DNA of 64,000 nucleotides from the IMG/VR virus record IMGVR_UViG_3300006114_000006, one strand, 5' to 3'. This document shows, one piece after another, positions 46,097 through 64,000 of the stretch. A model generated the notes under the pieces. That model did not search any database, was not told the DNA's origin, and was given only the letters and a program-made list of their open reading frames with translations. This DNA comes from an uncultured virus (IMG/VR IMGVR_UViG_3300006114_000006). Its lineage: Duplodnaviria > Heunggongvirae > Uroviricota > Caudoviricetes. Each line of letters begins with the position of its first letter. Within the stretch, counting starts at the first letter, position 1. Both the position numbers and the translations under genes were made by a program.

Positions 46097-46527
46097 AAGA
46101 TAGAATAGTTTGTAGTGGTGCATTATTTTATGCTAAATCTACACAACGATTTTTATTACTTCAAAAAAGTCACGGTAAACACGAAGGCACGTGGGGATTA
46201 GTCGGCGGGACAAACATCATAGGTGAAACACCTTGGCAAGGTCTTCAACGCGAAATTAAAGAAGAAATAGGTGCAGTGCCTAAAATAATTAAAACAATCC
46301 CATTAGAAACATTTGTCAGTAACGATAAAGTATTTAATTTTCATACTTATTTGTGTGTAATAGATAACGAGTTTGTTCCTGTCTTGAGTGACGAACACAT
46401 TGGTTGGGCTTGGACTACTGTAGATCGCACACCTAAACCCTTACATCAAGGACTACGTAATAGTTTTAACAGTAAAACTATTCGTACCAAATTACAAACT
46501 ATATTTGACTTAGTTGATCTAGTTTAA
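46078..46527 (+). CDS. NUDIX hydrolase
   Basis: Nudix box G-TNIIG-E-TPWQGLQ-REIKEEIG. Confidence 0.9.
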   Translation: MENNIVKDRIVCSGALFYAKSTQRFLLLQKSHGKHEGTWGLVGGTNIIGETPWQGLQREIKEEIGAVPKIIKTIPLETFVSNDKVFNFHTYLCVIDNEFVPVLSDEHIGWAWTTVDRTPKPLHQGLRNSFNSKTIRTKLQTIFDLVDLV

Positions 46528-47701
46528 TATCAAAGCCTTCGATATATTCTTTCATCAAGGCTGAATTGTGTGCCCAATACTGCTCGTATTCTCCAGTCTG
46601 CTGACACAATCTTACATATTTTTGAAATCTTTCCGATGTTTGTAAACGTTCTTTAGCCAGTGCTGTGACTGTATTCCAGAAAGGCGTATCTTTTTTGCAA
46701 GGACCTACATAGTTTAGTGCAACTAAATTCAACATATCTTCCATACTTTTAAGATAAGAAGTATTAATTCCTCTATTAAAATGCGGTGTTTGTAAATTAG
46801 TACCTTTAATTAATGTTTCAATAAACTCTACAGACAAATTTATATAAAAATGTAACGGCAATGCTTGTGCAGGTTCAAGAAAATATAGTCTGTTACCCAT
46901 GGATAATATGCGTCCATTCATTGCTTCTTTTTTATAATACTGTCTCCAGCTAAATTTTCTTAATTTACTAGCATCAATATTTTTTAATTTAGAAAATTTT
47001 TCAATCGCTTCTTCCTGAGTTGTTATATTTTTATTATATAGATAACCAAAGGCTTTACGATGAGTTAATGGTACTCCAAACATCCAGCCGTCGTCATGTG
47101 GATATGCACTTGTTAAATCTTCGTTATACTCTTTAAAGTCAGGAAATAGTATTACTGAGTTAACTGTTTCAAATTTTGGAAATTCGTATAGTCCACTATC
47201 CATTTCTTCGGCCGACGGTGATCCTCTACAATCGATGATATAGTCAAATTTATGTTGCACTCCGTCGACTAATATCGATACGTGAGTATGATCTTGTGTT
47301 ATGTCTGAGACATTACCGTGTATTTGAAAAAAATTATCGTATAATTTATCAAGTTTGTTGATAACAAATCCGCTAAATTTTTCACTGTTGACATGCAATC
47401 CTGTATGTCCATGCCTTACTAGGAAATTTTTATCATTAATATCTTCCCAGTAGTAACGAGTACCCCAGCGAAGGGTACCATCGAACTCTTTTAATTCTTC
47501 AGTAACAGAAAAATCAATAGCATGATAAAGTAAACTAGGCATTATAGGGCTAGTACTTTCGCCCACAGTAGTTACAGGAATGTCAGGATTGTATATGCAA
47601 TACACATCTATGTGTTTGCATCTATGGAATTTAAATTTATCAAAAATTGCAAGTAATGAAACGGCGCTGGCGGTACCACTACCTATAATGCCTATTTTCA
47701 T
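46499..47701 (-). CDS. Tryptophan-halogenase-like flavoprotein
   Basis: IIGSGTAS, VGES, FDYIIDCRG, GWMFGVPL, GN...FLEPAQA. Confidence 0.8.
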   Translation of the reverse strand: MKIGIIGSGTASAVSLLAIFDKFKFHRCKHIDVYCIYNPDIPVTTVGESTSPIMPSLLYHAIDFSVTEELKEFDGTLRWGTRYYWEDINDKNFLVRHGHTGLHVNSEKFSGFVINKLDKLYDNFFQIHGNVSDITQDHTHVSILVDGVQHKFDYIIDCRGSPSAEEMDSGLYEFPKFETVNSVILFPDFKEYNEDLTSAYPHDDGWMFGVPLTHRKAFGYLYNKNITTQEEAIEKFSKLKNIDASKLRKFSWRQYYKKEAMNGRILSMGNRLYFLEPAQALPLHFYINLSVEFIETLIKGTNLQTPHFNRGINTSYLKSMEDMLNLVALNYVGPCKKDTPFWNTVTALAKERLQTSERFQKYVRLCQQTGEYEQYWAHNSALMKEYIEGFDIKLDQLSQI

Positions 47702-47708
47702 AAAAACC

Positions 47709-48704
47709 TTATTGTACGGTTATAACGCAGTCGTCTGATCCTGACCAATATTGAAAACCACAACTTACTGTGATAGTGTCACCTGGAACAAGATGTGTTG
47801 CAATTAAACGAACAGTTCCTACACCGTTGACTGTTTGTACTTGTTGTTTATTCAAGTGACCTGCCGTAGTTTTTAAATATATAGTTGCATTGTGATCCGT
47901 TATAGGCAATCCATGCTCAGAGCTTGTTTTTGCTGGGGGATTTAAATCGGTAGGAGTTCCTAAGTAAAACGGTAAATCGACATAGCCGTCTGGGCTGACA
48001 GTAGCAGTCTTATTTGTAAAATAAACTTTTGGCATAGTATATACGATTCTGCCAAGCTCGTCGGTGATTACATTTGTGAATTGTTCGCCTGACGATATTC
48101 TTACTAGGCCAGGATCGCTATCGCCCAACGCAACCATCATGTTCCAATCTGATGGATTCATTTCTGCAAACGGAATAGAAATTAAAATCATAGGACTATT
48201 CTTTTGCAAAGACATTGCCCTAACTGGATTTTTCTTATGTAGTTGTGAATTGGCTACTAAATTGTATAATGGGATACCTGTTCTTGTATTCAAAGCAGTT
48301 TGTTGAACGTATCTTACATTTAAATTTCTTACAGTAACTTGGTCAGCTGGGTGAGTGATTGCAAAAATAGCATGATCTGAAAATCCCTCATTGTTGGTAA
48401 TATCTGTCCAATTTATTTCTCCAGAAATTCCTGCTGTTACACCAGGATAGACTCCTGAAGTTTGACTATAAACTCTATGTGTTTCTGTTTCCCATGCAAA
48501 TTCGTCAGCAGGGCTTGGATATCTAACTCCGGCTACTTTTCTAGCAGTAACGGTATTATCTGCTAAACTAGCCCATTCCAACTGCAATTCTGATTTTTTA
48601 TAGGCATCAAATACTGTCCACTGAAATCCAGTGTCAGTAAATTTTATATCTAGTGCTATCAACTGCGAATGTTGAAACTGTATTAAATTTTGAGTTAAAT
48701 TCAT
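47709..48704 (-). CDS. Hypothetical protein with C-terminal Ig-like (Big-1/invasin-like) beta domain
   Basis: 'ATIYLKTTAGHL...VQTVNGVGTVRL....PGDTITV'; AAGGA SD; TAAATA at 48732-48737. Confidence 0.6.
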   Translation of the reverse strand: MNLTQNLIQFQHSQLIALDIKFTDTGFQWTVFDAYKKSELQLEWASLADNTVTARKVAGVRYPSPADEFAWETETHRVYSQTSGVYPGVTAGISGEINWTDITNNEGFSDHAIFAITHPADQVTVRNLNVRYVQQTALNTRTGIPLYNLVANSQLHKKNPVRAMSLQKNSPMILISIPFAEMNPSDWNMMVALGDSDPGLVRISSGEQFTNVITDELGRIVYTMPKVYFTNKTATVSPDGYVDLPFYLGTPTDLNPPAKTSSEHGLPITDHNATIYLKTTAGHLNKQQVQTVNGVGTVRLIATHLVPGDTITVSCGFQYWSGSDDCVITVQ

Positions 48705-48717
48705 GATCTGCTATTCC

Positions 48718-50184
48718 TTATTCCTGTTCAGTATTTATCAAGGAACTCTTACCGTAAACTTCGACATTGTCGATTACAGCAACTTTTTCACTGACAATCT
48801 TAATAGGTATTATTTTTTTCTTTTCTTCTTCGTGTTTGAATACACCGCCCCAGATATCTTGGCGCTCTAATGGTAATCCTTTGCCCTTAATATGGTAAGG
48901 AACATAACCACCTGTTATTTTTTCAATACTTGCGGCAAACAATGGTACGTTATCGCTATAGGCGTTATTGCAACTTGTAGTCCAGAATTCATCTGAAAGG
49001 AACATACATGCACCTTTACAAATATGCAACACTGGACAACTTGGACATTCTGCACGATTACTCCAGTGTGTACTAGTAGTAATTTTTACGTCCTCGATCT
49101 CAGTAATCTTACCACCTAAGTGAGGTTCTCCGTTTTTGTTAATTTCGATAGCACTGACATTTTGGCAAGTAATTACATTGCCGTTTAAATCAAATGCAAC
49201 GGTTCTTTCGTCATCCATGCCGCATTTTTGACCTAAATAGTCTGCTTGCTGATGGGTCAATACTGATTCTGTGAAATTATCAACTTTTTGTAATATGTTG
49301 CCAAAGCCGATTTCACCGTTAGATCCGTAAATTTCTCCGAACGCGATTTTTCTAAATTCGAAATGATCTTGTTTAGTTTGTAAACTGTGTTGTAGGCCAT
49401 CGGCATCATATGCATCTACAAAGGTACCTTCACCTAAACTAACATTGGGATCATTTGTAAAATTAATAAAATAATCAAATATAGCTTTACGACTAAGATT
49501 TTGTCTGTTTAACATTGAGTTAAAACTGATGCGATTTAAAGGACGCAAAATCTGGTATAAATCTAAAATAATTTCACGTTTCTTAGGATCTGCAAATGGA
49601 TCTGGTCCGCGTACATGTTGTCCTGGCCCGTCATGACTGATAGCTACATGGAATTCCATACTGTATAGCCAAGCACAGATTTCTTCTGTTAAAATACTAC
49701 CATTAGTAATAATACTAAAAACTGGTTTCTTTCTCCAATCTTTAAAAAATTCTGCTACTGCTTCGGCCAGGGGTTTTAATGTCTTCCAGTAAACTAAAGG
49801 TTCACCTCCCCAAAATTCAACTCGTAAACCGTCTTCTTCGTTAAACTCTAAAGTCTTAAACATTTCCATAAAATTTTCAATGTCTTTAGCATTAGTTTCA
49901 CGTGGGCGTTCCACAAATTTTTGACTGCAATAATCACAACTATAATTACAACTTAATCCTAGTTGAATTTTTACGTGATTAGTACTGCGAGATTTAATTA
50001 AAGGACGATCTTTATCAAATGGTTTGTATGGTACTCGATTTTCAAAATTATTTGCATAAGCATCGGGATACTCATAGACGAATCCTGTTTCATCGCTTAA
50101 GACATTTTTTTCGTTGTCATAGAAGAACGTTCTTAGATCAGGTGGGTTTGATCCAAACTTTTCTGTCAGTATTTCAAAAATCAT
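48718..50184 (-). CDS. Radical SAM enzyme with SPASM domain (peptide/protein maturase type)
   Basis: CNYSCDYC (CX3CX2C), FWGGEPL, ITNG, ISHDG; SPASM C-X13-G-X4-C...CX2CX5CX3C-X11-C. Confidence 0.93.
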   Translation of the reverse strand: MIFEILTEKFGSNPPDLRTFFYDNEKNVLSDETGFVYEYPDAYANNFENRVPYKPFDKDRPLIKSRSTNHVKIQLGLSCNYSCDYCSQKFVERPRETNAKDIENFMEMFKTLEFNEEDGLRVEFWGGEPLVYWKTLKPLAEAVAEFFKDWRKKPVFSIITNGSILTEEICAWLYSMEFHVAISHDGPGQHVRGPDPFADPKKREIILDLYQILRPLNRISFNSMLNRQNLSRKAIFDYFINFTNDPNVSLGEGTFVDAYDADGLQHSLQTKQDHFEFRKIAFGEIYGSNGEIGFGNILQKVDNFTESVLTHQQADYLGQKCGMDDERTVAFDLNGNVITCQNVSAIEINKNGEPHLGGKITEIEDVKITTSTHWSNRAECPSCPVLHICKGACMFLSDEFWTTSCNNAYSDNVPLFAASIEKITGGYVPYHIKGKGLPLERQDIWGGVFKHEEEKKKIIPIKIVSEKVAVIDNVEVYGKSSLINTEQE

Positions 50185-50202: not shown

Positions 50203-50604
50203 TTAGCAGTTACAGTTACAGTTACAATTACAGTTACAATTACAGTTATAATATACGTTGGTATTAATGTTACAGTTGTAAGTGCAGTTGCAATTACAGT
50301 TGTTTTGTAACCAGTTTTGACCATCGCAATTTGTGCAATTGATGTTATTACAATTATAACAGTTTGTACAGCAAATGTTACCACAATTACAATTATTTGG
50401 ACAATTTCCGTTGTTGCAATTACCCTTGTTATTTGAACGATAGTATGCTCTGTTACGCATTTCGTTCATAGTTGGGTAACTATCACGTTGTCCTGGAATT
50501 ACATATCCATTAAGATTACTCAAATTGCTGTATGGACTGCTGTTAGGCAGTCCAATTTCGCCGTCAATTTGACTAATATAAATAGGACTTGAAGGAGTTG
50601 TCAT
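50203..50604 (-). CDS. Cys/Asn-rich protein, putative radical-SAM substrate / tail-tip protein
   Basis: 21 Cys in residues 63-133, ending (NC)7; AAGGA SD; starts 3 nt after the tail fibre stop. Confidence 0.85.
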   Translation of the reverse strand: MTTPSSPIYISQIDGEIGLPNSSPYSNLSNLNGYVIPGQRDSYPTMNEMRNRAYYRSNNKGNCNNGNCPNNCNCGNICCTNCYNCNNINCTNCDGQNWLQNNCNCNCTYNCNINTNVYYNCNCNCNCNCNCNC

Positions 50605-50607
50605 CGT

Positions 50608-52578
50608 TTATTCCTTGTTAATCTGTGCTTTTAATTCTTTAACTTGGCTTGACAATTCCTTAACTGCTTCAATCACTAATGGTAATAACTTTTCGTACTG
50701 AACTGTCATGTACTTAGCGTCGATTGGAGCTGGTTTGATAATTTCTGGCAGGATTGCATTAACTTCTTGAGCAGAAACTCCAACTTCACGTTGAACAGTA
50801 TATCCCAAATCCTGAGCAGTTTGGTTAGCTTCAAAGTAAAAACCATTTAATGTTTCTAACTTAGCAAGAGCATCTTCAATTTTGCCCAAACGTGTCTTTA
50901 ATCTGTCATCTGAGTAGTAAGCAACAATGTTGTTTGCCGCATAAATTGTACCACCACCACCGTTAGTGTTAGTACCAACGCCTAGCGAACTAAAATAACC
51001 ATATGTACTACCAGCATTCATTGTACCGCCGCCAGTTAAGTTAAACGCTGTTACGCTATTCATTGTGAAAGTTGTAATACCGTTAAAAGTAACTGTACCA
51101 CCAGACTGTCCAACTGTAAAGTTAGTGTTGCTGATTGTAGCAGTACCACCGCTAGCACCAATGTTAACTGCTGAACTTGCTCCAGTAAACAAGTTACCTG
51201 TACCAGCGTTGGTTGCAATGTTAACAGTACCAGTAGCTTGACCGTTGGTCAATAAGTTAAAGTTAACGTTGCTACCACTTTGAATACCAAATGTATTAGA
51301 AGTATTGATATACAACCCTTCTGAACTAACCCAAGCTGGGTTACCGCCACCGCTTGTTGGACCTAATGTACTGCTTGCCCATTGTAATGTGTGATTACTA
51401 GTTCCATATAATAATATGCCGCCGCCGTTGGCAAATGTATCAGCACTACCTGGAGTAATAGCTGTAATTGTACCAGCTACAGGAGTTGTGCCGCCTGTTA
51501 CTGTTACCTGAATACTAGTTCCACTTACAATGTTGCTTATTACATAACTTGTACCGCCGCCGCCTAAACTACCTGTACCGTTAGTTGCACTAACAGCTTG
51601 ACCGTTTACCAAGTTGGTAGTGTTGGGCATACCGGTAATAGTTGCAATCCAAGGACTGTAGTTAACGTTGCTTACAGTGAATGTTAAGTTGTTAGGACTA
51701 TTAGTACCACCAAGTAAGTTACCACCAATAGTAATTGTATCATTGATTGCATAGTTACTTCCTGGATTAACCAATGTAATTGTAGTTACACCAGTATAAG
51801 TTGTACCTGACCCAGTTGTAGTGATGTTAAAAGTTGCACCCGATCCGCTACCACTTGTAGCAAATTGTCCAACACCACTGTATGTACCTGCACCAGTTAC
51901 TTTTGTACCAGTAATACTTGTAAATGTTGTACTACCGCCTAACGCACCACCGATAGTTGTAACAGTACCGCCACCATAAGTAACTGGATTAACATATCCA
52001 ATTTCAATATTTTTATCTTCTGTACGTACTGAACTAGAGTTAAGAACAACTGTTCCGCCTTTTACTAACAATTGATTGTTAATAGTAGTTGTACCAGTGC
52101 TAGAACCAATATTGATACTAGTTGCCGCGCCTGCAAAGTTAACTGTCTGAGTATTTGTATTGTAGATATTGGTGGTACCAGTATTGGTACTAATCAAATC
52201 AGCTGAAAAAGTTCCGTTAATACCAAATTGATTACCGCCTGGGAATGTAATTATACTATAGTTAGTACCATCAGATCCAATAATACAACTAGATCCTGCT
52301 GGCATGGCCAATAAGTTTGTACTAGAACCACCTGGTCCGTTAAACACCGGAGAACTAGGACTACCAGCAATATATCCGCTAGGAGCAGAAAGTGTAACAA
52401 CACCACTAGTGTTGTTAAAATAACTTTGCGACTGTCCTAAAAATAATGTTGGTCCTGGGATAACCACCGTGTACGGTGCAGATCCTTGAAATTCTGTGTA
52501 ACCACCTTGTGCAGGTGTTAACAGAGTTTGTGCTCCGGAAACAATTTCTGTTGCCAGCGATGTATTATAACGTGCCAT
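50608..52578 (-). CDS. Tail fibre with C-terminal intramolecular chaperone (peptidase S74)
   Basis: YSDDRLK...ALAKLETLNG...GVSAQEV...PE...V.YEKLLPLVIEAVKEL. Confidence 0.88.
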   Translation of the reverse strand: MARYNTSLATEIVSGAQTLLTPAQGGYTEFQGSAPYTVVIPGPTLFLGQSQSYFNNTSGVVTLSAPSGYIAGSPSSPVFNGPGGSSTNLLAMPAGSSCIIGSDGTNYSIITFPGGNQFGINGTFSADLISTNTGTTNIYNTNTQTVNFAGAATSINIGSSTGTTTINNQLLVKGGTVVLNSSSVRTEDKNIEIGYVNPVTYGGGTVTTIGGALGGSTTFTSITGTKVTGAGTYSGVGQFATSGSGSGATFNITTTGSGTTYTGVTTITLVNPGSNYAINDTITIGGNLLGGTNSPNNLTFTVSNVNYSPWIATITGMPNTTNLVNGQAVSATNGTGSLGGGGTSYVISNIVSGTSIQVTVTGGTTPVAGTITAITPGSADTFANGGGILLYGTSNHTLQWASSTLGPTSGGGNPAWVSSEGLYINTSNTFGIQSGSNVNFNLLTNGQATGTVNIATNAGTGNLFTGASSAVNIGASGGTATISNTNFTVGQSGGTVTFNGITTFTMNSVTAFNLTGGGTMNAGSTYGYFSSLGVGTNTNGGGGTIYAANNIVAYYSDDRLKTRLGKIEDALAKLETLNGFYFEANQTAQDLGYTVQREVGVSAQEVNAILPEIIKPAPIDAKYMTVQYEKLLPLVIEAVKELSSQVKELKAQINKE

Positions 52579-52959: not shown

Positions 52960-55900
52960 TTATCTTGATAAGAAGAATACGGTAGCTACAGGAGCACCGT
53001 CAATTCCGCCTGTGAACAGCATCTTACTGCTAACATAAATTTGATTACCATTTAGGTTACTAATAGTATTACCAGCTATGTATATCTGTCCTGCCGTTAG
53101 TGTATTTACGTTCAAACTACTTGATCCGCCACCAATTTGGGCTGTGATGTAAGATTTAATAGCTTTTTGTGTTGGTAAAATATTGTCACTATTAGCAGTA
53201 AAGTACGGATCTGTACTAAATTGCGTAATCGTTGCACTATTTACACCTAAACTTACTGAACCTAGTGTCAAACTCTGTAATCCAGCTAAGTTAAATGCGT
53301 TGGCATTCAATGTAGCTGTACCAGTCGCTTGTTGAACTCCAAACAAGTTACCAACGTTAAAGTTACCGTCTTGGTCAGTTGATGTAAAGAATACGCGACC
53401 ACCAATATTTGGATATGTTTGGTTAGCCTGAATTGCATTTGCATCAGTAACGTTTGGATAGTTAGTTTGTGTTTGGTTACCTGAGCCAACATACAAGAAG
53501 TCATGTCCAGTTAAACGTGTTTGACTGTATTTCAATCTTGTAGTAATCAATGCACCGTTCGGTGGAGCAAGATAAGTTGTTAGACTTGGACTTACTTGGA
53601 ATGTAGCAGTATAGTTACCTGCTTGTCCTAATTGATTACTTGTAGCAACTAGTTTGTACCATGCGTTAGAAATACTGCTGAACTGTACGTTAGCACCTGC
53701 GGCAGGTAATGCATATAAATTAGCAACGTTAATAAATGCTGTATTCTGGTAGATATCAGCATATCCATCGCCAGTAATACTTGCTGTTGCTGTTGCATTT
53801 CCAGCACCACGACATGGGAAACTTGGGTTACCTAACACACCATCACCTGTACGTACACGAGTTGGTGCTTTGTTAACTTGGTTAGGATCGGTAATAGTTA
53901 ATGTTGGTCCTGTTGTATATTGCATACCAGTTGGAGTACTTGTTGTTAATGTAACACTAGTACCAATTGTTGCCAATGCAGATGAAGTTGCAACTTGGAA
54001 TGTAGTAGATTGAATTGTTGATCCAATTACATAGTAAGTTGTTTGTGTGCTTAATCCGCCAGAGCTTACAGTATTGAATTCAATTGGTTGTAGATTATAC
54101 ATGTTTTCTGTTTGATCTACAGTAATTAAATTCAATGGTCCAACTGTACCAGCTACTGATATGCTACTTGCAGTACCTGCATTAAATGGACTACCATAAT
54201 AAGTTGAACTGATAGTTAGTGTTGTACCTGAACTTGTTACTTGTACATAATAAGTTGTGTTTGCAACTACGTTACCAAACCCAGTAGCAAATGTAATTGG
54301 TTGGCCAATTGTTAAATTGGTTGCACCGATTGTAATTGAATTTCCAGATACGGCTGTTACGGTAACTGTTGTACCAGCAACATACGTAGTTCCAGTAACA
54401 ACACCTTTAGCAAATCCACTGCCTGGTTCAATCATACGTATTTCAGTTAAAGCACCACTAGCTACTTTTGTACGTGCCAACGGTGTTGCACCGGTATGAA
54501 TACTTGCCGCTACTGTACCAGATTGGTTACTTGCGGTTACCCATAGTGGTGTGTAACCAGTTGTTGTAACTAATGGATTACCAAATGATGGAGTGATCCA
54601 ACTTGCGTATGTTGGCAATGTTTGCTGTGTCCAGTTGATACCGTCCCAACTTGTTGCCGCGATGTTTGTACCAATTGTACTTGTCCATGCACCTGTGTCA
54701 TTAACTAATGTAATTACTGGAGATAAAGTACTACTTGCACTTACAGTAATCTGATTGCCTGCAATACTAGCAATATAGTATGTATTACCTGAAATCAAGT
54801 TACCAAATAATGAACCTGCTTGTGCAGTCCAAGATCCGCCAGCGTTAGTAACTACCGCATTGGTTCCACCATAAATTGTACTTACTGATATTAGTGTACT
54901 TCCAACAATTTCAGTAATGAAATATGTCGAGCCGGATGTTAATCCACCAAATGTTGCACCTTCAGTTACTGACCATGATCCATTTCCGTTTGTTACAGTT
55001 AAGTTAGAACCGCCATAAGTTGTACTTACAGTGATTGTACCGTTTACACCCGGAGTTGGAATGCTTGTAACGTAGTATGTTGTACCGCTTGTAATACTAC
55101 CAAAAGCGGCACCTGCTACAAATGTCCATACACCTGTACCGTTAGCAATAGTTACCGATGAACCATTGTATACTGTACTAATTGTAATATTACTGCCTGC
55201 TACACTAGTGATATAGAATGTAGTACTAGCTGTTAAATTACCGCCGCCTAATGTCGCACCAGCTGTTACGCTAACACTTTGACCAGTAGTTGTTACTAAA
55301 GTCAAATCACTTGTGGCACCATACACAGTACCTACAGCAAGCTGGTTAGTACTAATAGTTTTAGTAATATAATATGTGTTACCTGAAATCAAGTTACCTA
55401 CGTTAGTAGCAACTGTAAATGTTTCACCAATTAACATACCGCTGTTAGAGTTAACAGTGATAATGTTTAATGTACCTGTAATACTTGTACTAGTTTGTGT
55501 AAATCCTGAACTTGTACTTACGTTCCAAGTACTACCGTTACCACTACCAGATATATTTGATATAATATATGTTCCAGCAGGAATACTACCACCTGAAATA
55601 ACAGCTCCTGGAGTGATTGTACCTGCACTCAAAGTACCAACAGTTAATATACTGTTAGTAATACTAGAACTTGATAATGTAAATGATCCGTTAGTTGTAG
55701 CAGTTAATGTAGTTGTTTGACTAACTGCTGTGAACACAATAGTTTCACCTTGTACTAAACCAGTAGTTGAGTTCAATGTAATTGTGTTACCAGTACTAGA
55801 TGTAGAAGTAATATTACCAGTTTGGGTCACTGCTGTAAACACGACTGGAGCACCTACCGCCATACCAACAGTTGTACCAACTGTTAACAAGTTACCAGTA

Positions 55901-58900
55901 GCGGCTGTTGTAGTCAATGTTGTGCTAACAATATTACTCGTAAACACTATTGGTTCGCCCACTGACATACCGGCTGTGTTTCCAACTGTAATTGTATTTT
56001 GTGTACCAGTGATTGCACCAGCTGCCGCTGTTTGACTTGGAGTAATTGTCCAGCTTTGTCCGCCAATTGTCTGAGCACTTGAAATAGTTAATGCACTAGT
56101 ATTCAATGTGTATGTACCAGTTCCGCCTGCTGTATAGAAGTTATAAGTACCAGTAGCATTTGACCCAGCAATAGTTGCCGCCGCGCCTCCTGCGACTCCC
56201 ACGGCTAATGGAACTGTTGTACTACCAGGAACATATGAACTTGCTACTACTGTTCCTGATGGGATGCCTGTACCAATAATTAATTGGCCTGCTACGATAC
56301 CTGTTCCAGTATTAACAACAAAAGAACTTGCACCAATAGTACCACCAGATGCCCAACTTGGACTTGCTACTGCACTTGCAGAGCTTGTATTTTGATATGC
56401 AATATAAGCAGTCAATCCGCCTGTTATTGTTGTAGATGGAACTAATGAGCCAGTGTTAGCTACCCATGCATTACCGGTTACAGTAACACTGGTTACTAAA
56501 CTAGTAGTGCTAATAAAGTATTGTCCAGCAGTACCAGGAATATAACCGTTGTATGTTCCGCCACCGATTGTTGCATATAATGGCTGACTTAATGTAATTG
56601 TTGTGTTGGTTGCAACTGAAACAGCAACTACATAAGTGTTATAGAACAAACTACCGCCAGTAATTAATTGTCCTACAGCGAATCCAGTCGATGAACCAGA
56701 TATTACTAGTGTAGTAGTACCAATTGTTCCGCTTACTCCTGTACCTGTACCTACCGCACTACTTGTAGTACTGATTTGTCCAGTAATATATGTACCAGCG
56801 GTAATTGTACCAGTACCGCCTGTACTAGCCAATACCATACCTGGTATTAATGTATTATTGTTGATAGTACCAGTTGTTGTAAGTACATATGGTGTGCCTG
56901 TCAATGCAGTTGAACTAACTACTGTTGCTACGCTGACAATCCACTGACCGGTTGAGCTAGTTGGAGTTGTTGATGAACCGTATGGTGCAACAATAGTTGT
57001 GCCAGCTGTAACACCTGTACCACTTAGAATATAACCTGGTTGAATACCAACACCGCTTGGTGTTGAAGACACAGTTAAAATACCTTGTCCGTTAACTATA
57101 GAAACACTACCGTTGAATGTAACTACTGTGCTTGGAGATGCTGTTCCAGTAATTGTGCTACCTGAAGTAGTTGGATTTGAAACAATATAAGTAGCACCAG
57201 TAGTTATATTTGTACCGCTCAACTGACTACCTGTTGTAATTACACCAGTAGTTGTACCTGCTGGTACAAATACACCAGTTTGTACACCACTTGGATAGTA
57301 CGTGTTCCAAATGTATGAACTTGTAGTGTTAAATTGTGCGCCAGTTAATGCCATTCCAGGTTGTACACTATAAGCACTGGTTGTACCAGTACCAGTAACT
57401 GTACCGCCAATGGTCAATATAGATCCTGCAATCGTTGACGATGTTGAATTAAATGTATTGCTACCAGTAATGTAAGTTCCTGATGTCACATTTGAACCAG
57501 TCAAATACATACCTAGTGCAAACGGACCTAAACCAACTGGTGCAGTTAATGTTGTACCTGCGTTGCCTGCAATACCGTTAGAAATAAACGATGTTGACAA
57601 TCCAATTGCTGTTGCATTAATTGTCTGACTAGCCACTGTAGTTTCAGTCACTGCTGTTGGAACAATAGTATTTCCTACGTTCAAACCGGCTGTACTGCTT
57701 AATGTAATCAAGTTACCACTTGAAGTAGTAGCTGTCATTGTAGGAGTTGGTCCTGTTGCTGTTGCAAAGAACTGTCCTTCTCCGTATGAGATTCCCCAGT
57801 TTTGTGCTAATGGTAAGTATGTACCGTTATTTGCTACACTTGAGTACCAAGTTACACCACCGTTGTTGCTGTATGCAACAATATTGCTACCTGCGGCTAC
57901 TGCAACAAAACGTCCGTTACCATAAGTTACGCTAGACCAGTTAGCAACTGACGGTAATGCACCACCAGTAGTCCATGTTAAACCGTTAGTACTGTAAGCT
58001 GTTGATGTACTGTTAGTTGCGATAGCTACAAACATACCTGTAGTTGTTGCACTAGATCCTGGTCCAGTCCAGCCAAATGCCACAGATGTAAACGCTTGTG
58101 TTGCACCGCTTGGAGCTGTTCTGCCAGTCCATGTAACACCGTCTGGACTAGATGTAATAATAGCACTGGCATTAGATGTTGTTCCAGTGTAACCAACTGC
58201 AACATAAATTCCGTTACCATAAGTTAAACTGTTAAATCCAGCGGATGGAAGTGCGTTACCAGAAGTCCAAGATGATCCTAAATTAGCTACTGTACTATAA
58301 GCTGTTGCTGTAGTTGTTGTAGAAATTGCAACAAATTTAGCACTAGTATCTAATATTGTAATAGTAGGAGTTGCAGTATAACCGTAACCAATGTTAGTAA
58401 TTGTGTAACTGCTGACACCGTAATCTGTCAATGTTGGAGTTGCAGTTGCGGCAGTACCTACGAATGTCAATGACACACCATATGTTCCTGCAGATCCTGT
58501 ACCTGTTGTAAACGTTGGAGCAGTTGATGAAAATGTTCCGCTCGATGTTGCTAGGTAATAGTTTGTAGCTTGAGTTGCACCACTATAATAGTAATAGTAT
58601 GAGCCACTTGTTGCACTCGAACTTCCACTCCAAACAGTTCCACTAAATGGAGCACTGATTGTTACGCTAACGTTTCCGCTATTGAAATAATTTTTACCCC
58701 AAGTGATAGGAGTAATCGCAGTAATAGCACTAGTTACAACTGTTACAGTCGGTGCTGAAGTATATCCAGAACCATTAACTGTAATAATAACTGATTGAAT
58801 TACTCCGTTAAGAACAACTGCTGTTCCTTGGGCACCGGTACCGCCACCACCTGTAAACAATAATGATGGAGCAGTATTATAGTTGTAACCGCCGTTAATT

Positions 58901-61900
58901 ACGTTGACTCCAACTACTTGTCCTAAACTTGTTCCAGTACCAATCACTGCTGTCAACTGAGCACCAGATCCGCCAAATCCACCTAGTGTTACTGTTGCGG
59001 CAGCACTTTGACCTCCACCGTAAACAACGTTTGTAAATGCAGAAGCTGTTAATGCACCACCTGGAGTCCATGTTTTACCGTTAGTGCTAATTGCAGTCGA
59101 TGTACTACCATTGGCAATTGCTACATAATTTCCAGCACCGTATGTAATACTTGACCAGATTGCTGTAGCTGGTAATGTTCTTGCTGTTGCGGCATAACCT
59201 GGACCTGTGAATGAAACATAAGGTTCAATAATATATGCTGTAGTTAAATCTAATGTGTTAACTATAGGAGTACCTGGTACAACATGATCCCAACCAGCGG
59301 CATATAAGCTGACTGTTTGTCCACTAGTTGCTGTTAAACCAGTAATTGCAGAACCGCCTGATGTTAATGCTAGTGTAAACTGAGTTGTACTTGAAATAGC
59401 CTGTACATAATAAACTTGATATGCAGTCAAATTCATATTAGTAGCGGTTGTACTCAAGTAAATTGGCATACCAACATATAATGTTGCAGTACTTGCCACA
59501 GTTAATGCAGTAGTACTTGAACTGGTAACAGTTAAGGTTGCAAATGTTGTACGAATAATTTGTGCAATTTTACTACCGTTAGTATAAGTTAGTATTGACG
59601 CATATTGTCCAACACCTGTACCAGCAGTAATTTGTACTTTCATTCCGTTATATGAACCAGTCAATGCTACGTCGGCTGCCGCAATAGTAATATAACCTAC
59701 TGCACCGCCTTGGCCTACGTTAACAGAACTTACATAACTTGAACCGCCAACACCTAAACCATTGTTTAAGTCAATTAAACGTGATTCAAATACACCAGCA
59801 TCACGGAACTCATCTGCAAAAGAAAGAATGTTATAACCTGATCCACTAATTGTTGGTATAGCATTGGTGTAGTTTGTACCTGCATTTTCGTATTCTAAAC
59901 GTAAAATTTGTGTTGTACTATCTGTAACCACGTTAGTAACTTGAGGTCCGTAACTTCTGTTATTTACAGTACCGTAAATTGGAGTTTCAAATGTGTCAAC
60001 ACCTTCGGCAACTACACCGTATGTACCATATGAACTGTTACCGTTAGTAGCACGAATGCGTCCTCCTAATTCACTCATGTATCCAGCGTAGCTGTAGTAG
60101 TTAAACACTGAAACAAGTTCTGATAATGAACCTGTTCCAGTTGTCCACCAACCGATACCATCGCCGATAACACAAGTATAGTCGTTTGCAACCATTGATT
60201 TGTATCCACCGGCATGCAATGCACCGTCAACTTTGGCGCCAACGCAAGCGTAACCGAACATTGTACAATTTTGTACGAATGTTGAACGTGCATAGACCCA
60301 TGCATTTTGATCGTTTGGTCCAAAGCCTGGATCTAAACTTGCATACGCACCTGCTGTTGGTCGACGTGTTCCATAAGCATTTGCTGTACTTAAAACACCA
60401 GTCAATCCGTTCATAGTTTGATTACGAATACCACATGCATTTCTTACTAGATAGAAGTTTTGTGTTGTAGATCCTGCCACCGCGTTAACATAAAGTTCTG
60501 CGGCACGCATTGATTTCCAGTTACCTGTATAATTAATATCATAAATCAACGCATTGATAAAGTTTGTTGTATCGCGTACACACTTAGCATAGTTATAGTA
60601 GTAGCCTACAGTTAAACTTCCTAACGAACCTGTTGCTAATGTAAATGTTGTTTGTGTACCTGTGCCATATTGAGTTGCACTGATAGTAAATGTTGTTGAG
60701 CTTGGCACAGTTAAAACATAATAAGTAGTACCAGCAACAATATTGCTTGAACCAACAGTACCAGTAAACACTACTGGGTCATTTACTAATAAATTATGTG
60801 CGCCACTTGTATTAACAACACTACCAGATGTTATACTGGATACTGTACCGCCGTAACTTGCTACTGTATAAGCAGATGCTTCTGCGGCCAGGAATGGAAT
60901 GTTAGCACGAAGAATTTCTGTGCCTTGAATTGTTAGAACGTTATCATTGTAAGTTAATGAACCATTAATCATTGGATTATTTAAATATGGCCATGTCACT
61001 GTTGCTCCAGCAGTGGTTGTAGCTGACATACCAGTTACTGTATTAGTAATTGTGTATGCTGTACCACTCTTAAAGCTGTTGGTCAATGTTAATGTTGCGG
61101 CAGGAACTGTTACAGTAATACCAGTAATTGTTCCACCTGATGTTGTTGATGTTACAGCACTTCCGCCTAATGTTGCTGACAATTGGAAAGCTGTTGATGT
61201 TGGATTACCAATAATATAATATGTTGCACCACTAGTATAACCAGTGATACTACCAGCTGAGAACGTACCAGTAATAACAACTGGCTGTCCTACTGTTAAT
61301 GTTACTGAACTTGTTGCACAACTGAATACACCTGTTGTACTAGTAATTGCCAATGTGCTTAATGTTGCGGCAGATTGCAATGAATTAATCCAGTATGTAG
61401 TATTATTCCATAGTCCGCCTGCGTTATTGAATGCCATTGTCATTGTACCAGTTGCTGATATCAATGCCACATTACCGCCACCAAATGTTAAACTAACAGT
61501 AATTGTACCGTTAGTTCCAGGTGTTGGGATACTTGCAATATAGTATAACTGGCTTGGAACAATATTACCAAATACTGTACCTGTGAAGTACACTTGCTGT
61601 CCAACTGATAAGCCTGTTGTAGTTGCAACTGTAATTAAATTGCTGGTTGTTGTAGTAGCTGTTGCTGTTACAGAACCTAAAGCTGGTAAACCTGAGAATG
61701 TAATTGGCATGTTAGTTGGCATACCTGCTGTACTTCCAAGTGTTACAATATTGCTAGATGTTTGTACACCAGCTACTGTAGTTGAATAACTACTTGATAC
61801 AAATCCTAATGACAATGTTAAACCTTGTCCTGAACTTGTAGTTGTTGTTGCTTGTGCGGCACTGTATAAACTTGTGTTGTTCCAGTTACCACCAGATGTT

Positions 61901-64000
61901 ACTGTTACAGATGCGATAGTATTATAGTATGTACCAATAGTTACTACGCCAACTGCTCCAGTAACTGTACCACCTGTAAATGAACCAGGTGTTCCCGCCA
62001 CTGCATTTGCATAACTGCTAGATAAACTTACAGTAAAACTGTTGTTTACACCAGTTGTTACATAATATGTGCCTGCTGACATACCGCCTGCGGCTGCCGC
62101 AAGAGTAACAGATGTACCTTTAACTAATGTTTGAGCACTACTAAATGTTGCTAAACCACCAGCAGTAATGTATGTGATAGTTTGTCCAGTAGTTGCTGGA
62201 GTCAACGATACTGAGAATGTAGCTGTACCGCCCGATGTTGTTACAGTAATTACGTCTGCTGTACCATAGGCAATAGTCTGTGTACCTGCAAGAATTGCTG
62301 AACCAACAGTATTAAACGCTACTTGTCCATTGATCTTAGTTACGATATCATCAATCAATGTTTGTGCTTGAACTGTCGAACCTGCACTTGCAATTTGTTT
62401 TGCTTTAAATCCAATAAATGTTATTGCACCGGTTGTTGCATTCAATTCTTGGTTTGTATTTGCCACTAATGCCAACGCACTTGCGTTTAAACGATTAAAT
62501 GCACGACCGCATGCAATACTATTAAAGTTAGTACCAAATAAAACATCCCAAGCTAATGCCAATGCAATATAACCAGCATCGCGTTGAGTTAATGATTGAC
62601 TGATTGGATATGCTTGATAATATTTTTGAACCCAAACTTGAGCATCGCTTGCAATTTCGGTTTGTCTTGCAATTAAATTATTATATGCTGTTTGTAAGTA
62701 TTGATTGGTTACTAAGGCATACGCACCGCTTGTTACTGGTGTGAATGTTGACAATGCTGTAAATGTTGTACCAGTATTGCCACTAGTACTCAACGTATAA
62801 GTACCTGCACCGTTAGCTGGATAGAATAAGTATGCACCTGTACCGCCAGTTGACGTAAAGTTTTGTGGAGCACCAAACGCATTAACTACGGTAATACTTG
62901 TTCCGCTAATATATGATGAGCTAACATAAGATCCAGCTGGAAGGTTAGTACCTGTAATTAATTGTCCTGCCGCAATACCTGTTGCACTTGAAACCACAAA
63001 TGTATTAGTACCAGCTGATCCTCCGCTGGCTAATGTTGTAGCCGCTGTTGCACTTGCAGAACTTGTTAATTGATTAACAATATATGTACCTGCCACAACA
63101 CCTGTACCAGTTAACATAGAACCAATATAAATTCCATTACCTGTTCCTGAAGTAACAGTTAAAGTTGTACCACTCACACTACCGACTAGTGTTAATGTAG
63201 TTGCATTACTTGTAGCATTTTGTAACCAGTAAATTACATCACCAACGCGGCCTGCGGCAAAACTTGCGGCTGCGGCTGAACCTGCTGAACCGCCAGTTGA
63301 CTGCGTTACAGAGTTACCGCTTGTTGCTGTTACACTTGTACCTGTAACTATCTGACTGATAATTGCTTGTAAACGTTGTAGTGCTCCAACAGTTGCGGCA
63401 TTGTATGATGCTAAGATTTGTGGAATTTGTAAACTGTAATAAGAGCTACCATTAATAATACTTTGATTATTACAACCATAAGTCATATCGTACTGTAGGC
63501 CATCTAATACGAAACCGATATCACGTAATGTTTCTGTTTGGTTTGTACCGCCAAATGTTGTCCACACGCTACTATAATATGTATTTAGATATGCGGCAAT
63601 TTCTGCTTTGATAAACAAATAGTTATTTTGAATCTGTGTTATACCGTATCCAAATCCTACTAGATAACTTGTATTGTATCCAGTTAATTGTGGGATAGTG
63701 ATTGCAGGAGTCTTTGGAAGACCGTTATAAATCATATCATTAATTAAACTAACACTTGTGTTAATTTGATTAACTACGGTTGTGCTTCCTACATCGCCTG
63801 CTGGTAATCCAGTAGCTTGGCCACTTACAACTCCGCCACTTACATAAGATGCAGAAGTAGTGGAAGTATAACTCACACTATTAGTTGTTACAGCAGTTAC
63901 AATGTAACTTCCGTTATAACCAGAAGGGTTTACACTAGTTACAGTAATATATTGATTTACGTTAAATGGTGCAGATGTCTGTGATGCAAAAGTTAATGTT
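52960..64000 (-). CDS. Giant virion structural protein (over 3,670 aa, 5'-truncated by window edge)
   Basis: Frame is open to 63999 (TLTFASQT...); repeated beta modules, Asp-box-like S.(N/D)G.TW repeats, KCVRD, G.GYT..P motifs, C-terminal HDFL.VG. Confidence 0.85.
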   Translation of the reverse strand, partial: TLTFASQTSAPFNVNQYITVTSVNPSGYNGSYIVTAVTTNSVSYTSTTSASYVSGGVVSGQATGLPAGDVGSTTVVNQINTSVSLINDMIYNGLPKTPAITIPQLTGYNTSYLVGFGYGITQIQNNYLFIKAEIAAYLNTYYSSVWTTFGGTNQTETLRDIGFVLDGLQYDMTYGCNNQSIINGSSYYSLQIPQILASYNAATVGALQRLQAIISQIVTGTSVTATSGNSVTQSTGGSAGSAAAASFAAGRVGDVIYWLQNATSNATTLTLVGSVSGTTLTVTSGTGNGIYIGSMLTGTGVVAGTYIVNQLTSSASATAATTLASGGSAGTNTFVVSSATGIAAGQLITGTNLPAGSYVSSSYISGTSITVVNAFGAPQNFTSTGGTGAYLFYPANGAGTYTLSTSGNTGTTFTALSTFTPVTSGAYALVTNQYLQTAYNNLIARQTEIASDAQVWVQKYYQAYPISQSLTQRDAGYIALALAWDVLFGTNFNSIACGRAFNRLNASALALVANTNQELNATTGAITFIGFKAKQIASAGSTVQAQTLIDDIVTKINGQVAFNTVGSAILAGTQTIAYGTADVITVTTSGGTATFSVSLTPATTGQTITYITAGGLATFSSAQTLVKGTSVTLAAAAGGMSAGTYYVTTGVNNSFTVSLSSSYANAVAGTPGSFTGGTVTGAVGVVTIGTYYNTIASVTVTSGGNWNNTSLYSAAQATTTTSSGQGLTLSLGFVSSSYSTTVAGVQTSSNIVTLGSTAGMPTNMPITFSGLPALGSVTATATTTTSNLITVATTTGLSVGQQVYFTGTVFGNIVPSQLYYIASIPTPGTNGTITVSLTFGGGNVALISATGTMTMAFNNAGGLWNNTTYWINSLQSAATLSTLAITSTTGVFSCATSSVTLTVGQPVVITGTFSAGSITGYTSGATYYIIGNPTSTAFQLSATLGGSAVTSTTSGGTITGITVTVPAATLTLTNSFKSGTAYTITNTVTGMSATTTAGATVTWPYLNNPMINGSLTYNDNVLTIQGTEILRANIPFLAAEASAYTVASYGGTVSSITSGSVVNTSGAHNLLVNDPVVFTGTVGSSNIVAGTTYYVLTVPSSTTFTISATQYGTGTQTTFTLATGSLGSLTVGYYYNYAKCVRDTTNFINALIYDINYTGNWKSMRAAELYVNAVAGSTTQNFYLVRNACGIRNQTMNGLTGVLSTANAYGTRRPTAGAYASLDPGFGPNDQNAWVYARSTFVQNCTMFGYACVGAKVDGALHAGGYKSMVANDYTCVIGDGIGWWTTGTGSLSELVSVFNYYSYAGYMSELGGRIRATNGNSSYGTYGVVAEGVDTFETPIYGTVNNRSYGPQVTNVVTDSTTQILRLEYENAGTNYTNAIPTISGSGYNILSFADEFRDAGVFESRLIDLNNGLGVGGSSYVSSVNVGQGGAVGYITIAAADVALTGSYNGMKVQITAGTGVGQYASILTYTNGSKIAQIIRTTFATLTVTSSSTTALTVASTATLYVGMPIYLSTTATNMNLTAYQVYYVQAISSTTQFTLALTSGGSAITGLTATSGQTVSLYAAGWDHVVPGTPIVNTLDLTTAYIIEPYVSFTGPGYAATARTLPATAIWSSITYGAGNYVAIANGSTSTAISTNGKTWTPGGALTASAFTNVVYGGGQSAAATVTLGGFGGSGAQLTAVIGTGTSLGQVVGVNVINGGYNYNTAPSLLFTGGGGTGAQGTAVVLNGVIQSVIITVNGSGYTSAPTVTVVTSAITAITPITWGKNYFNSGNVSVTISAPFSGTVWSGSSSATSGSYYYYYSGATQATNYYLATSSGTFSSTAPTFTTGTGSAGTYGVSLTFVGTAATATPTLTDYGVSSYTITNIGYGYTATPTITILDTSAKFVAISTTTTATAYSTVANLGSSWTSGNALPSAGFNSLTYGNGIYVAVGYTGTTSNASAIITSSPDGVTWTGRTAPSGATQAFTSVAFGWTGPGSSATTTGMFVAIATNSTSTAYSTNGLTWTTGGALPSVANWSSVTYGNGRFVAVAAGSNIVAYSNNGGVTWYSSVANNGTYLPLAQNWGISYGEGQFFATATGPTPTMTATTSSGNLITLSSTAGLNVGNTIVPTAVTETTVASQTINATAIGLSTSFISNGIAGNAGTTLTAPVGLGPFALGMYLTGSNVTSGTYITGSNTFNSTSSTIAGSILTIGGTVTGTGTTSAYSVQPGMALTGAQFNTTSSYIWNTYYPSGVQTGVFVPAGTTTGVITTGSQLSGTNITTGATYIVSNPTTSGSTITGTASPSTVVTFNGSVSIVNGQGILTVSSTPSGVGIQPGYILSGTGVTAGTTIVAPYGSSTTPTSSTGQWIVSVATVVSSTALTGTPYVLTTTGTINNNTLIPGMVLASTGGTGTITAGTYITGQISTTSSAVGTGTGVSGTIGTTTLVISGSSTGFAVGQLITGGSLFYNTYVVAVSVATNTTITLSQPLYATIGGGTYNGYIPGTAGQYFISTTSLVTSVTVTGNAWVANTGSLVPSTTITGGLTAYIAYQNTSSASAVASPSWASGGTIGASSFVVNTGTGIVAGQLIIGTGIPSGTVVASSYVPGSTTVPLAVGVAGGAAATIAGSNATGTYNFYTAGGTGTYTLNTSALTISSAQTIGGQSWTITPSQTAAAGAITGTQNTITVGNTAGMSVGEPIVFTSNIVSTTLTTTAATGNLLTVGTTVGMAVGAPVVFTAVTQTGNITSTSSTGNTITLNSTTGLVQGETIVFTAVSQTTTLTATTNGSFTLSSSSITNSILTVGTLSAGTITPGAVISGGSIPAGTYIISNISGSGNGSTWNVSTSSGFTQTSTSITGTLNIITVNSNSGMLIGETFTVATNVGNLISGNTYYITKTISTNQLAVGTVYGATSDLTLVTTTGQSVSVTAGATLGGGNLTASTTFYITSVAGSNITISTVYNGSSVTIANGTGVWTFVAGAAFGSITSGTTYYVTSIPTPGVNGTITVSTTYGGSNLTVTNGNGSWSVTEGATFGGLTSGSTYFITEIVGSTLISVSTIYGGTNAVVTNAGGSWTAQAGSLFGNLISGNTYYIASIAGNQITVSASSTLSPVITLVNDTGAWTSTIGTNIAATSWDGINWTQQTLPTYASWITPSFGNPLVTTTGYTPLWVTASNQSGTVAASIHTGATPLARTKVASGALTEIRMIEPGSGFAKGVVTGTTYVAGTTVTVTAVSGNSITIGATNLTIGQPITFATGFGNVVANTTYYVQVTSSGTTLTISSTYYGSPFNAGTASSISVAGTVGPLNLITVDQTENMYNLQPIEFNTVSSGGLSTQTTYYVIGSTIQSTTFQVATSSALATIGTSVTLTTSTPTGMQYTTGPTLTITDPNQVNKAPTRVRTGDGVLGNPSFPCRGAGNATATASITGDGYADIYQNTAFINVANLYALPAAGANVQFSSISNAWYKLVATSNQLGQAGNYTATFQVSPSLTTYLAPPNGALITTRLKYSQTRLTGHDFLYVGSGNQTQTNYPNVTDANAIQANQTYPNIGGRVFFTSTDQDGNFNVGNLFGVQQATGTATLNANAFNLAGLQSLTLGSVSLGVNSATITQFSTDPYFTANSDNILPTQKAIKSYITAQIGGGSSSLNVNTLTAGQIYIAGNTISNLNGNQIYVSSKMLFTGGIDGAPVATVFFLSR

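Follow-up and report, generated by a model that had tools for sequence, protein, structure and literature searches.

Introduction

The phage adhesin gp38 attaches as a single polypeptide, the domains S74 and Hint cleave themselves, and His-x-His motifs bind iron in the gp37 needle of T4. A few cellular examples of thioether formation by radical SAM enzymes on entire proteins are known: the radical SAM/SPASM enzymes CrpC and QhpD install thioethers in the proteins CrpA and QhpC, respectively.

According to PMC7917993, the N-terminal domain of S16 gp38 attaches to the tip of gp37 once the chaperone has been cleaved off. Four further papers describe related enzymes and products. CteB, PapB and Tte1186 share a 3+4 Cys pattern in which one iron of auxiliary cluster I stays free to bind a substrate Cys (PMC10177961), and CrpC, which shows this pattern too, cross-links the whole Cys-rich protein CrpA (PMC13692751). 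NxxcB forms a Cys-to-Asn beta-thioether and also accepts Ala, Gln and Asp as acceptors (PMC9389541), and enteropeptin contains a thiomorpholine ring between an adjacent X-Cys pair (PMC12395415). In a literature largely without subscription papers, we found neither a description of an Asn-Cys fibre-tip/radical SAM system nor a paper on radical SAM thioether chemistry on a virus particle. PMC12801897 mentions a phage radical SAM maturase solely in the role of an antibiotic gene and does not connect it to fibres; in the CrpC paper (PMC13692751), the words 'phage' and 'tail' are absent from the text, and 'phage', 'Caudo', 'virus', 'tail' and 'fiber' are absent from its three supplements.

Here we describe a gene pair in the window (the whole 64,000-nucleotide stretch of viral DNA that was analysed), in which the gene of a Cys- and Asn-rich protein lies between those of a tail fibre and of a radical SAM/SPASM enzyme. 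The best reading, to which we give a probability of roughly 0.55, is that the protein is a small terminal fibre subunit in the T2/S16 gp38 position, that its core is the substrate of the neighbouring enzyme, and that Cys thioethers staple the fibre tip, with the preceding Asn probably taking part. The protein is like gp38 adhesins in position and like CrpA and QhpC in its presumed chemistry, and by their defining features it is a member of neither group.

Results and Discussion

Gene order and genomic setting

The virus record around the window has 101,891 bases, is estimated to be 28% complete and carries neck, tail-sheath-stabiliser and many long fibre-like genes, from which the source phage appears to be a jumbo myovirus. 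The minus strand encodes, in order, an S74 fibre, the Asn-Cys protein, the radical SAM/SPASM enzyme, a 331-aa protein and a halogenase-like flavoprotein. The fibre (50608..52578, 656 aa) matches tail-fibre PHROGs and ends in an S74 chaperone (PF13884 at residues 556-613, 34.4 bits against a Pfam cut-off of 22). Its autocleavage is predicted at Y555/S556 from the S16 gp37 site (PMC7917993), and the fibre is the likely docking partner of the next gene product. The Asn-Cys ORF (50604..50203, 133 codons) begins 3 bases further on, so that, as in the gp37-gp38 pair of Salmonella phage S16 (PDB 6F45), a small gene stands directly behind an autocleaving-S74 fibre. A gap of 18 bases separates it from the radical SAM gene (48718..50184, 488 aa; PF04055, TIGR04085 above cut-off, phrog_1802), and both genes are preceded by an AAGGA ribosome-binding site. 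Promoter and terminator scans performed no better than chance, and no second copy of the module, the NC protein, the S74 fibre or the enzyme was found in the 102-kb genome fragment.

The 331-aa protein (47709..48704, minus strand) belongs to no known family and is a candidate accessory protein or tip chaperone; its C-terminus is possibly Ig-like, with a sub-threshold Big_1/Invasin lead only (Ig-like in the ESM Atlas). Its homologues form a cluster present in 58 of 232 clustered loci from phages and prophages, including RSP15 ORF047. In many prophages and in RSP15 they lie between fibre and enzyme, which is the position of a tail-fibre assembly protein. The run ends with the flavin-dependent tryptophan-halogenase-like protein (46499..47701, minus strand; PF04820, 110 bits), a possible second tailoring enzyme whose homologue cluster is found in 37 of the 232 loci. 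The scanned representative of the largest neighbour cluster (156/232 loci) is a 2OG-Fe(II) oxygenase, and that of another (74/232) is Asp/Asn beta-hydroxylase-like; the recurrence of such clusters suggests further tailoring, for which the window has the halogenase-like gene instead. Upstream of the fibre in the same orientation, positions 52960-63876 hold a 3,638-aa ORF rich in Thr, Gly and Ser; it contains internal repeats, matches no Pfam family and is probably a giant fibre.

The Asn-Cys protein and its family

The 133-aa protein (50203..50604, minus strand) consists of an adhesin-type anchor and a Cys/Asn core. An initial annotation, made from the letters of the window and naming no strand, had described a Cys-free N-terminal part and a Cys-rich remainder ending in (NC)7, and this layout was borne out: residues 1-62 contain no Cys and residues 63-133 contain 21, of which 19 are directly preceded by Asn (I77-C78 and C78-C79 being the other two). 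Shuffling the core 200,000 times never yielded 19 NC pairs (maximum 17). The position-conserved Asn-Cys core, defined by an alignment of 84 sequences, spans residues 61-119 (50248..50424), and the terminal (Asn-Cys)7 tract, the element common to prophage fibre tips, occupies residues 120-133 (50206..50247). The tract is encoded by five AAC and two AAT codons alternating with six TGT and one TGC; with so few departures from a perfect hexamer, the tract probably owes its length to slippage. The initial annotation had taken this codon alternation as a sign of protein-level selection; the argument was overstated, as TGT fills six of the seven Cys positions, but its conclusion holds. Comparison with the relative L006 over 128 aligned codons revealed 58 identical codons, 53 synonymous differences and 17 non-synonymous differences, which argues clearly for selection at the protein level. 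A pure DNA microsatellite was rejected.

The protein matched no Pfam, NCBIfam or PHROG family at E<=0.1. A tblastn search with the whole protein, and with the N-terminus alone, against 50,697 phage records (low-complexity filter on) returned no match, PDB sequence searches with full-length and N-terminal profiles gave nothing credible, and a Foldseek search of the PDB with the monomer model gave no match at E<=0.001. Against viral models, the sole significant Foldseek match was an uncharacterised member of the same family, and the ESM Atlas contained unnamed clusters only. Profile searches recovered 166 homologues at E<=0.001, and 83 unfused homologues out of 120 listed were aligned with the query (84 sequences in total). 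Nine core Cys are invariant in this alignment and G, N, Q and Y positions of the core are nearly fixed, together with an aromatic residue at 98; the core is not a drifting repeat. The number of NC copies varies among the relatives, the longest pure run being 2 in 43 of the 84, 3 in 30 and 7, the maximum, in one. Pfam matches among the 84 were scattered, each in one or two members, and no member matched a metallothionein family.

Many members are fused to a further domain. An S74 domain follows the xC tract immediately in 25 of the 120 listed homologues, and a Hint domain follows it in L098, P0249, P0267 and P0293; since S74 and Hint self-cleave, the tract is probably at the mature C-terminus in these fused forms too. 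In 57 of 103 distinct locus proteins the tract leads into an unnamed domain that begins 'SKIIC' and is about 170 residues long (L033:5001-5897 and 56 similar), a candidate new self-cleaving or chaperone domain in the place of S74 or Hint; neither Pfam nor NCBIfam gave a match, the scans covering one and two members. In 30 'SKIIC'-type viral loci (for example L225:11800-13320) a gene for a B12-binding radical SAM protein is found downstream. With a narrow S74 profile, an S74 fibre was detected directly upstream of 17 of the 103 distinct NC homologues and further upstream of 7; none was detected in the fetched flank of 59, and the flank was too short in 20. At L009:4778-5626, two tandem NC-family genes lie behind one S74 fibre.

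The N-terminal module heads diverse adhesin-type proteins

AlphaFold (AF2) predicted residues 1-60 confidently as three short helices (block pLDDT 71-84) and gave no confident model of the Cys core (pLDDT under 50). The predicted fold of the module (residues 1-58, 50431..50604, minus strand) is gp38-N-like: among 48,161 solved chains, the sole match at Z>=2 was S16 gp38 (6f45_D, residues 2-46), a weak match (Z 2.7, rmsd 2.0, 45 aligned; VIA). Attempts to link the module to S16 gp38 at the sequence level failed, including hhalign against the single S16 sequence, and Pfam Gp38_N (PF21721) matched none of 73 family members. Besides this lack of a Gp38_N match, the window protein differs from S16 gp38 in having no Trp in its module, and so no Trp prongs, and in carrying an Asn-Cys core linked to an enzyme instead of a polyglycine domain (the polyglycine receptor-binding domain PF05268 matched neither the window protein nor its 83 homologues); some Asn-Cys members, unlike gp38, carry an S74 or Hint domain of their own.

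When the profile of residues 1-58 alone was searched against 1.84 billion proteins, 773 were found; 88 of the 146 new module proteins listed were NC-rich and 58, including fragments, were not. The heads attached to the module among the top 150 matches were varied, comprising polyglycine (PF21722), PA14/GLEYA, F5/8, fibrinogen-C and laminin-G domains (36 proteins scanned). From 79 loci fetched for Cys-free module carriers, we obtained 76 distinct module proteins, of which 24 directly follow an S74 fibre; the initial annotation had likened the start of the protein to that of small proteins encoded right behind S74-type fibres. S74 lies further upstream of 12 of the remainder and is absent from the flank of 31, and the flank of 9 is too short. 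None of the 76 has the enzyme nearby. Of 11 Cys-free carriers picked by eye, two pass Pfam GP38 (PF05268; L375, 44.7 bits, and L380, 26.2 bits, with a cut-off of 25), which is a further likeness to gp38, and two fall below the cut-off. The module of the Cys-free adhesin-type proteins aligned with that of the window with an hhalign probability of 99.1%, and L189 combines module, polyglycine insert and NC core in a single chain.

Since the same module heads varied Cys-free proteins without the enzyme, it is a generic anchor for swappable adhesin heads, the head here being the Asn-Cys core. Residues 1-58 would form a putative dock on the tip of the fibre trimer, an assignment that we consider probable. 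This docking, already proposed in the initial annotation, gains indirect support from the module shared with Cys-free adhesin-type proteins, from those carriers that directly follow an S74 fibre and from the weak fold match to the docking domain of gp38; the few NC homologues directly behind an S74 fibre (17 of 103), and the 59 with none in the flank, argue against a fixed tie to the fibre. The initial annotation had also given the N-terminus the role of a leader peptide. As a family feature this role is not supported, because the module occurs without the enzyme (0/76) and the enzyme family occurs beside long NCNCxC fibres without the module. The enzymes with module-type partners do group together (FastTree tree of 121 sequences, judged by eye and built without support tests), and the N-terminus of the enzyme superposes on the N-terminal region of CteB. 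A leader role may therefore still apply to this sub-clade, where part of the module, for example the strand just before C63, may aid enzyme recognition.

The Asn-Cys tract and the radical SAM enzyme co-occur in both directions

The link between the two neighbouring genes proved stronger than the window's own sequence could show. Starting from the protein, which gave 148 viral loci, the enzyme was found within 5 kb in 79 of the 80 best-scoring ones, the single miss being a locus that ends about 150 bases past the gene. Starting from the enzyme in bacterial genomes, mostly of Betaproteobacteria, an NCxC tract was found in 63 of 80 loci (the best 80 of 210) and in 46 of the 47 with full flanks; the exception, L122, has unrelated genes upstream. 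Starting from the enzyme in viral contigs, the tract was found in 72 of 80 loci and in 42 of 44 with full flanks, and both full-flank misses carry divergent members of the enzyme family. A third scan started from the DNA pattern and was blind to both proteins; it found at least 118 loci, 80 of them with fetched flanks. The pattern read NCNCNCN near the end of an ORF in 26 of the 80, and the enzyme profile matched in 25 of these 26 (23 above 100 bits and 2 weaker), the remaining locus being incomplete. Where the pattern was read internally, 2 of 6 loci had the enzyme, and where it was not read as an NC protein, the enzyme was found in 0 of 48. As the locus sets overlap and contain near-duplicates, these counts are not independent events.

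The prophage partners are mostly proteins of 180-620 aa that end in NCNCxC and lack the module; they are encoded after central-fibre genes and before lysis-type genes, and several match tail-fibre PHROGs. In the cultured phages JWF (an Achromobacter phage) and RSP15 the order is fibre, accessory genes and enzyme, with enzymes 46% identical to that of the window; the JWF fibre ends in CNCDCNCNCSC followed by Hint, and the RSP15 fibre ends in NCQCGN. The feature common to all enzyme partners is the C-terminal Asn-Cys tract and not the module. The enzyme family comprises 2,290 clusters at E<=1e-20, a number that may include distant radical SAM proteins.

Enzyme architecture and comparison with known maturases

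The enzyme has the CxxxCxxC motif at residues 79, 83 and 86 and SPASM Cys at 321, 340, 380, 383, 389, 393 and 405; with TIGR04085 above cut-off it belongs to the radical SAM + SPASM class. Across 121 enzymes, each of these seven SPASM Cys is present in 120 or in all 121, and there is no conserved eighth Cys, as expected of an enzyme with an open site on auxiliary cluster I. Its model (pLDDT 90) is best matched by CteB (Z 23.9, model residues 1-421 on chain residues 3-448; VIA). An N-terminal beta-sheet takes the position of the N-terminal domain of CteB; the three strands and one helix of this N-terminus align within the CteB N-terminal region, and no PqqD-type (RRE) Pfam domain was matched on the enzyme.

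The closeness to CteB, PapB and Tte1186 (PDB 5WGG/5WHY) thus comprises the best structural match and the same 3+4 pattern of auxiliary-cluster Cys. However, identity is only 14-16%, scores are far below the NCBIfam cut-offs, and the partner in the window is not a short precursor and has neither SCIFF nor regular CX3D motifs; unlike ranthipeptide and sactipeptide systems, the family's substrates share no dedicated leader. The locus resembles CrpC/CrpA and QhpD/QhpC in placing a Cys-rich protein, with a folded N-terminal domain and a Cys-rich C-terminus, beside a radical SAM enzyme with a seven-Cys SPASM domain. It differs from them in that Asn precedes Cys, whereas Cys precedes the acceptor in CrpA (C-X-X-Q/D) and QhpC (Asp/Glu), and in that CrpA and QhpC are cellular proteins while the window protein is viral and probably structural; against TIGR04463 and TIGR03906 the enzyme scored 42 of 525 and 69 of 453 bits. 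It fell far below every named maturase cut-off (best PapB, 74 of 340 bits; QhpD, 69 of 453), and because these scores are so low its chemistry is not given by family.

In the aligned family, the residue before Cys is N in 72%, A in 11%, D in 9% and Q in 4%. These are the residues acting as acceptors in NxxcB/NxxcA, where Asn is the acceptor and Ala, Gln and Asp are tolerated, and enteropeptin provides the precedent for a ring between adjacent X and Cys. Both are short Firmicute peptides with one link each, unlike the window protein, and the spacing conserved here is N-C and not N-x-x-C. Among the 910 Cys that have no other Cys two residues earlier, that is outside CxC runs, Asn stands at -1 in 82% and at -3 in 17% (background 24%), which rules out the NxxC geometry.

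Proposed maturation of the fibre tip and alternative explanations

In the maturation that we propose, the upstream fibre would trimerise and shed its S74 chaperone at Y555/S556, the domain being detected in the fibre and the cleavage being established S74 behaviour, and residues 1-58 would with good probability dock on the exposed trimer tip. The two-way co-occurrence makes it very likely that the enzyme acts on the Asn-Cys core. Somewhat less firmly than the docking, but still as a likely step, a substrate Cys would bind the open iron of auxiliary cluster I, a 5'-deoxyadenosyl radical would abstract a hydrogen, and Cys-S-carbon thioethers would form. At the same level of confidence, the acceptor would most likely be the preceding Asn, giving a six-membered ring if linked at C-alpha and a seven-membered ring if linked at C-beta, or alternatively an Asn that lies on another strand or chain nearby; Asn could instead serve in recognition or as a structural ladder. 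The product would be a rigid, reduction-proof head contacting the host. Because the Asn-Cys core nearly always travels with a radical SAM enzyme, the phage probably cross-links its host-binding tail tip chemically; we infer the virion location, the docking, the thioether formation and the host-binding role. The fusions to S74, a trimer chaperone (25 of 120 listed homologues), sit awkwardly with a single-chain gp38-like anchor. Extended tentatively to the phage and prophage family at large, which would span several unrelated morphotypes and where it is somewhat more doubtful, the proposal is that these radical SAM enzymes would bring RiPP chemistry to the virion, turning Asn-Cys runs at the far end of tail fibres and tip adhesins into chains of thioether rings or inter-chain staples.

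The alternative that survives best, although we consider it unlikely, keeps the protein at the fibre tip but leaves its Cys unmodified, to coordinate metal or Fe-S clusters along the fibre axis as the His-x-His motifs do with iron in T4 gp37, the enzyme modifying another residue or loading the metal. The CxC spacing is indeed common (for 40% of Cys, the second residue downstream is again Cys), the S74 fusions imply trimers in some members, the short partners L276 and L285 combine HTH and CxCxCxC, and CrpA, itself thioether-modified and Cys-rich, is suspected of metal binding (PMC13692751). Yet metal binding needs no enzyme, while the co-occurrence is nearly strict; it also leaves the fixed Asn before Cys unexplained, and the enzyme model is CteB-like, with NifB reaching a Z of only about 10.

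Slightly less probable still is a different radical chemistry on the tip, namely anSME-like conversion of Cys to formylglycine, epimerisation of every other residue, or aromatic cross-linking at the conserved W/Y positions. Structural models of anSME (Z 20.2) and ChlB come close behind CteB at Z 20-21, the family has conserved aromatics at 54, 55, 98, 109 and 119, and an alternating repeat would suit L/D alternation. On the other side, the extra auxiliary-cluster Cys of anSME is absent from the enzyme; EpeE matches at Z 12.6 only, and the prophage tips have Asn-Cys but no fixed aromatic motif.

That the gene encodes a classical RiPP precursor, with residues 1-62 as a leader that is cut off and a core released as a bioactive peptide, is improbable. 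The protein does look like leader plus core, module-partner enzymes form one tree group, many pairs lie away from S74 fibre genes and beside oxygenases, and one partner (L174) is a free peptide. But the N-terminus is predicted to be folded and is reused, without the enzyme, on GP38, polyglycine, PA14, F5/8 and fibrinogen-type heads, the partners in prophages are mainly long fibres, and the neighbour clusters scanned include no protease or transporter. Least probable is an unmodified disulfide/Asn-ladder beta-solenoid or metallothionein-like protein, both considered in the initial annotation, beside an unrelated enzyme: the high Cys/Asn content and the core pLDDT under 50 would suit it, but neither form explains a two-way link to the enzyme that spans unrelated gene contexts and is absent in the controls.

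If thioether stapling of the tip is correct, an enzymatic maturation step is added to phage receptor-binding proteins, and a large unannotated phage enzyme family gains a function. The receptor-binding surface would be built post-translationally and be invisible to sequence-based prediction of host and structure, which would matter for host-range prediction and for recombinant expression of such fibres. Co-encoded oxygenases or halogenases would tailor the tip further, and the slippage-prone (NC)n tract would tune its length. A further possible gain is an enzyme able to close rings between neighbouring residues many times along a single chain.

Variant loci of the enzyme family

In a cyanobacterial MAG (L174:1249-3742), a member of the enzyme family (436 bits) is preceded by a short peptide containing QCFQCYQCYQCYQC and by a 2OG-Fe(II) oxygenase. 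This partner is a free peptide with QC repeats and not a fibre, which counts against the fibre-tip reading, and no phage genes were recognised, suggesting a possible free RiPP use of the enzyme family with Gln-Cys in place of Asn-Cys. Three loci of Alphaproteobacterial type (L175:3154-5999, L179 and L177) have a fibre ending in SYC repeats and NCNC, with a second, more distant radical SAM gene ahead of the main one. At L276, L285 and L363, 67-79-aa proteins with an HTH motif followed by CNCNCNC are encoded beside a distant enzyme (56-102 bits where the flank was fetched), which is a possible sister system. Jumbo phage RP12 (L025:1397-8967) has three radical SAM genes, one of them 28% identical to that of the window, behind a virion gene and a small protein that has two HTH motifs and no Cys. 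Finally, Burkholderiales assemblies (L111, L114, L126 and L148; L115, L124 and L128) each contain three or four fibre-enzyme cassettes with different tips.
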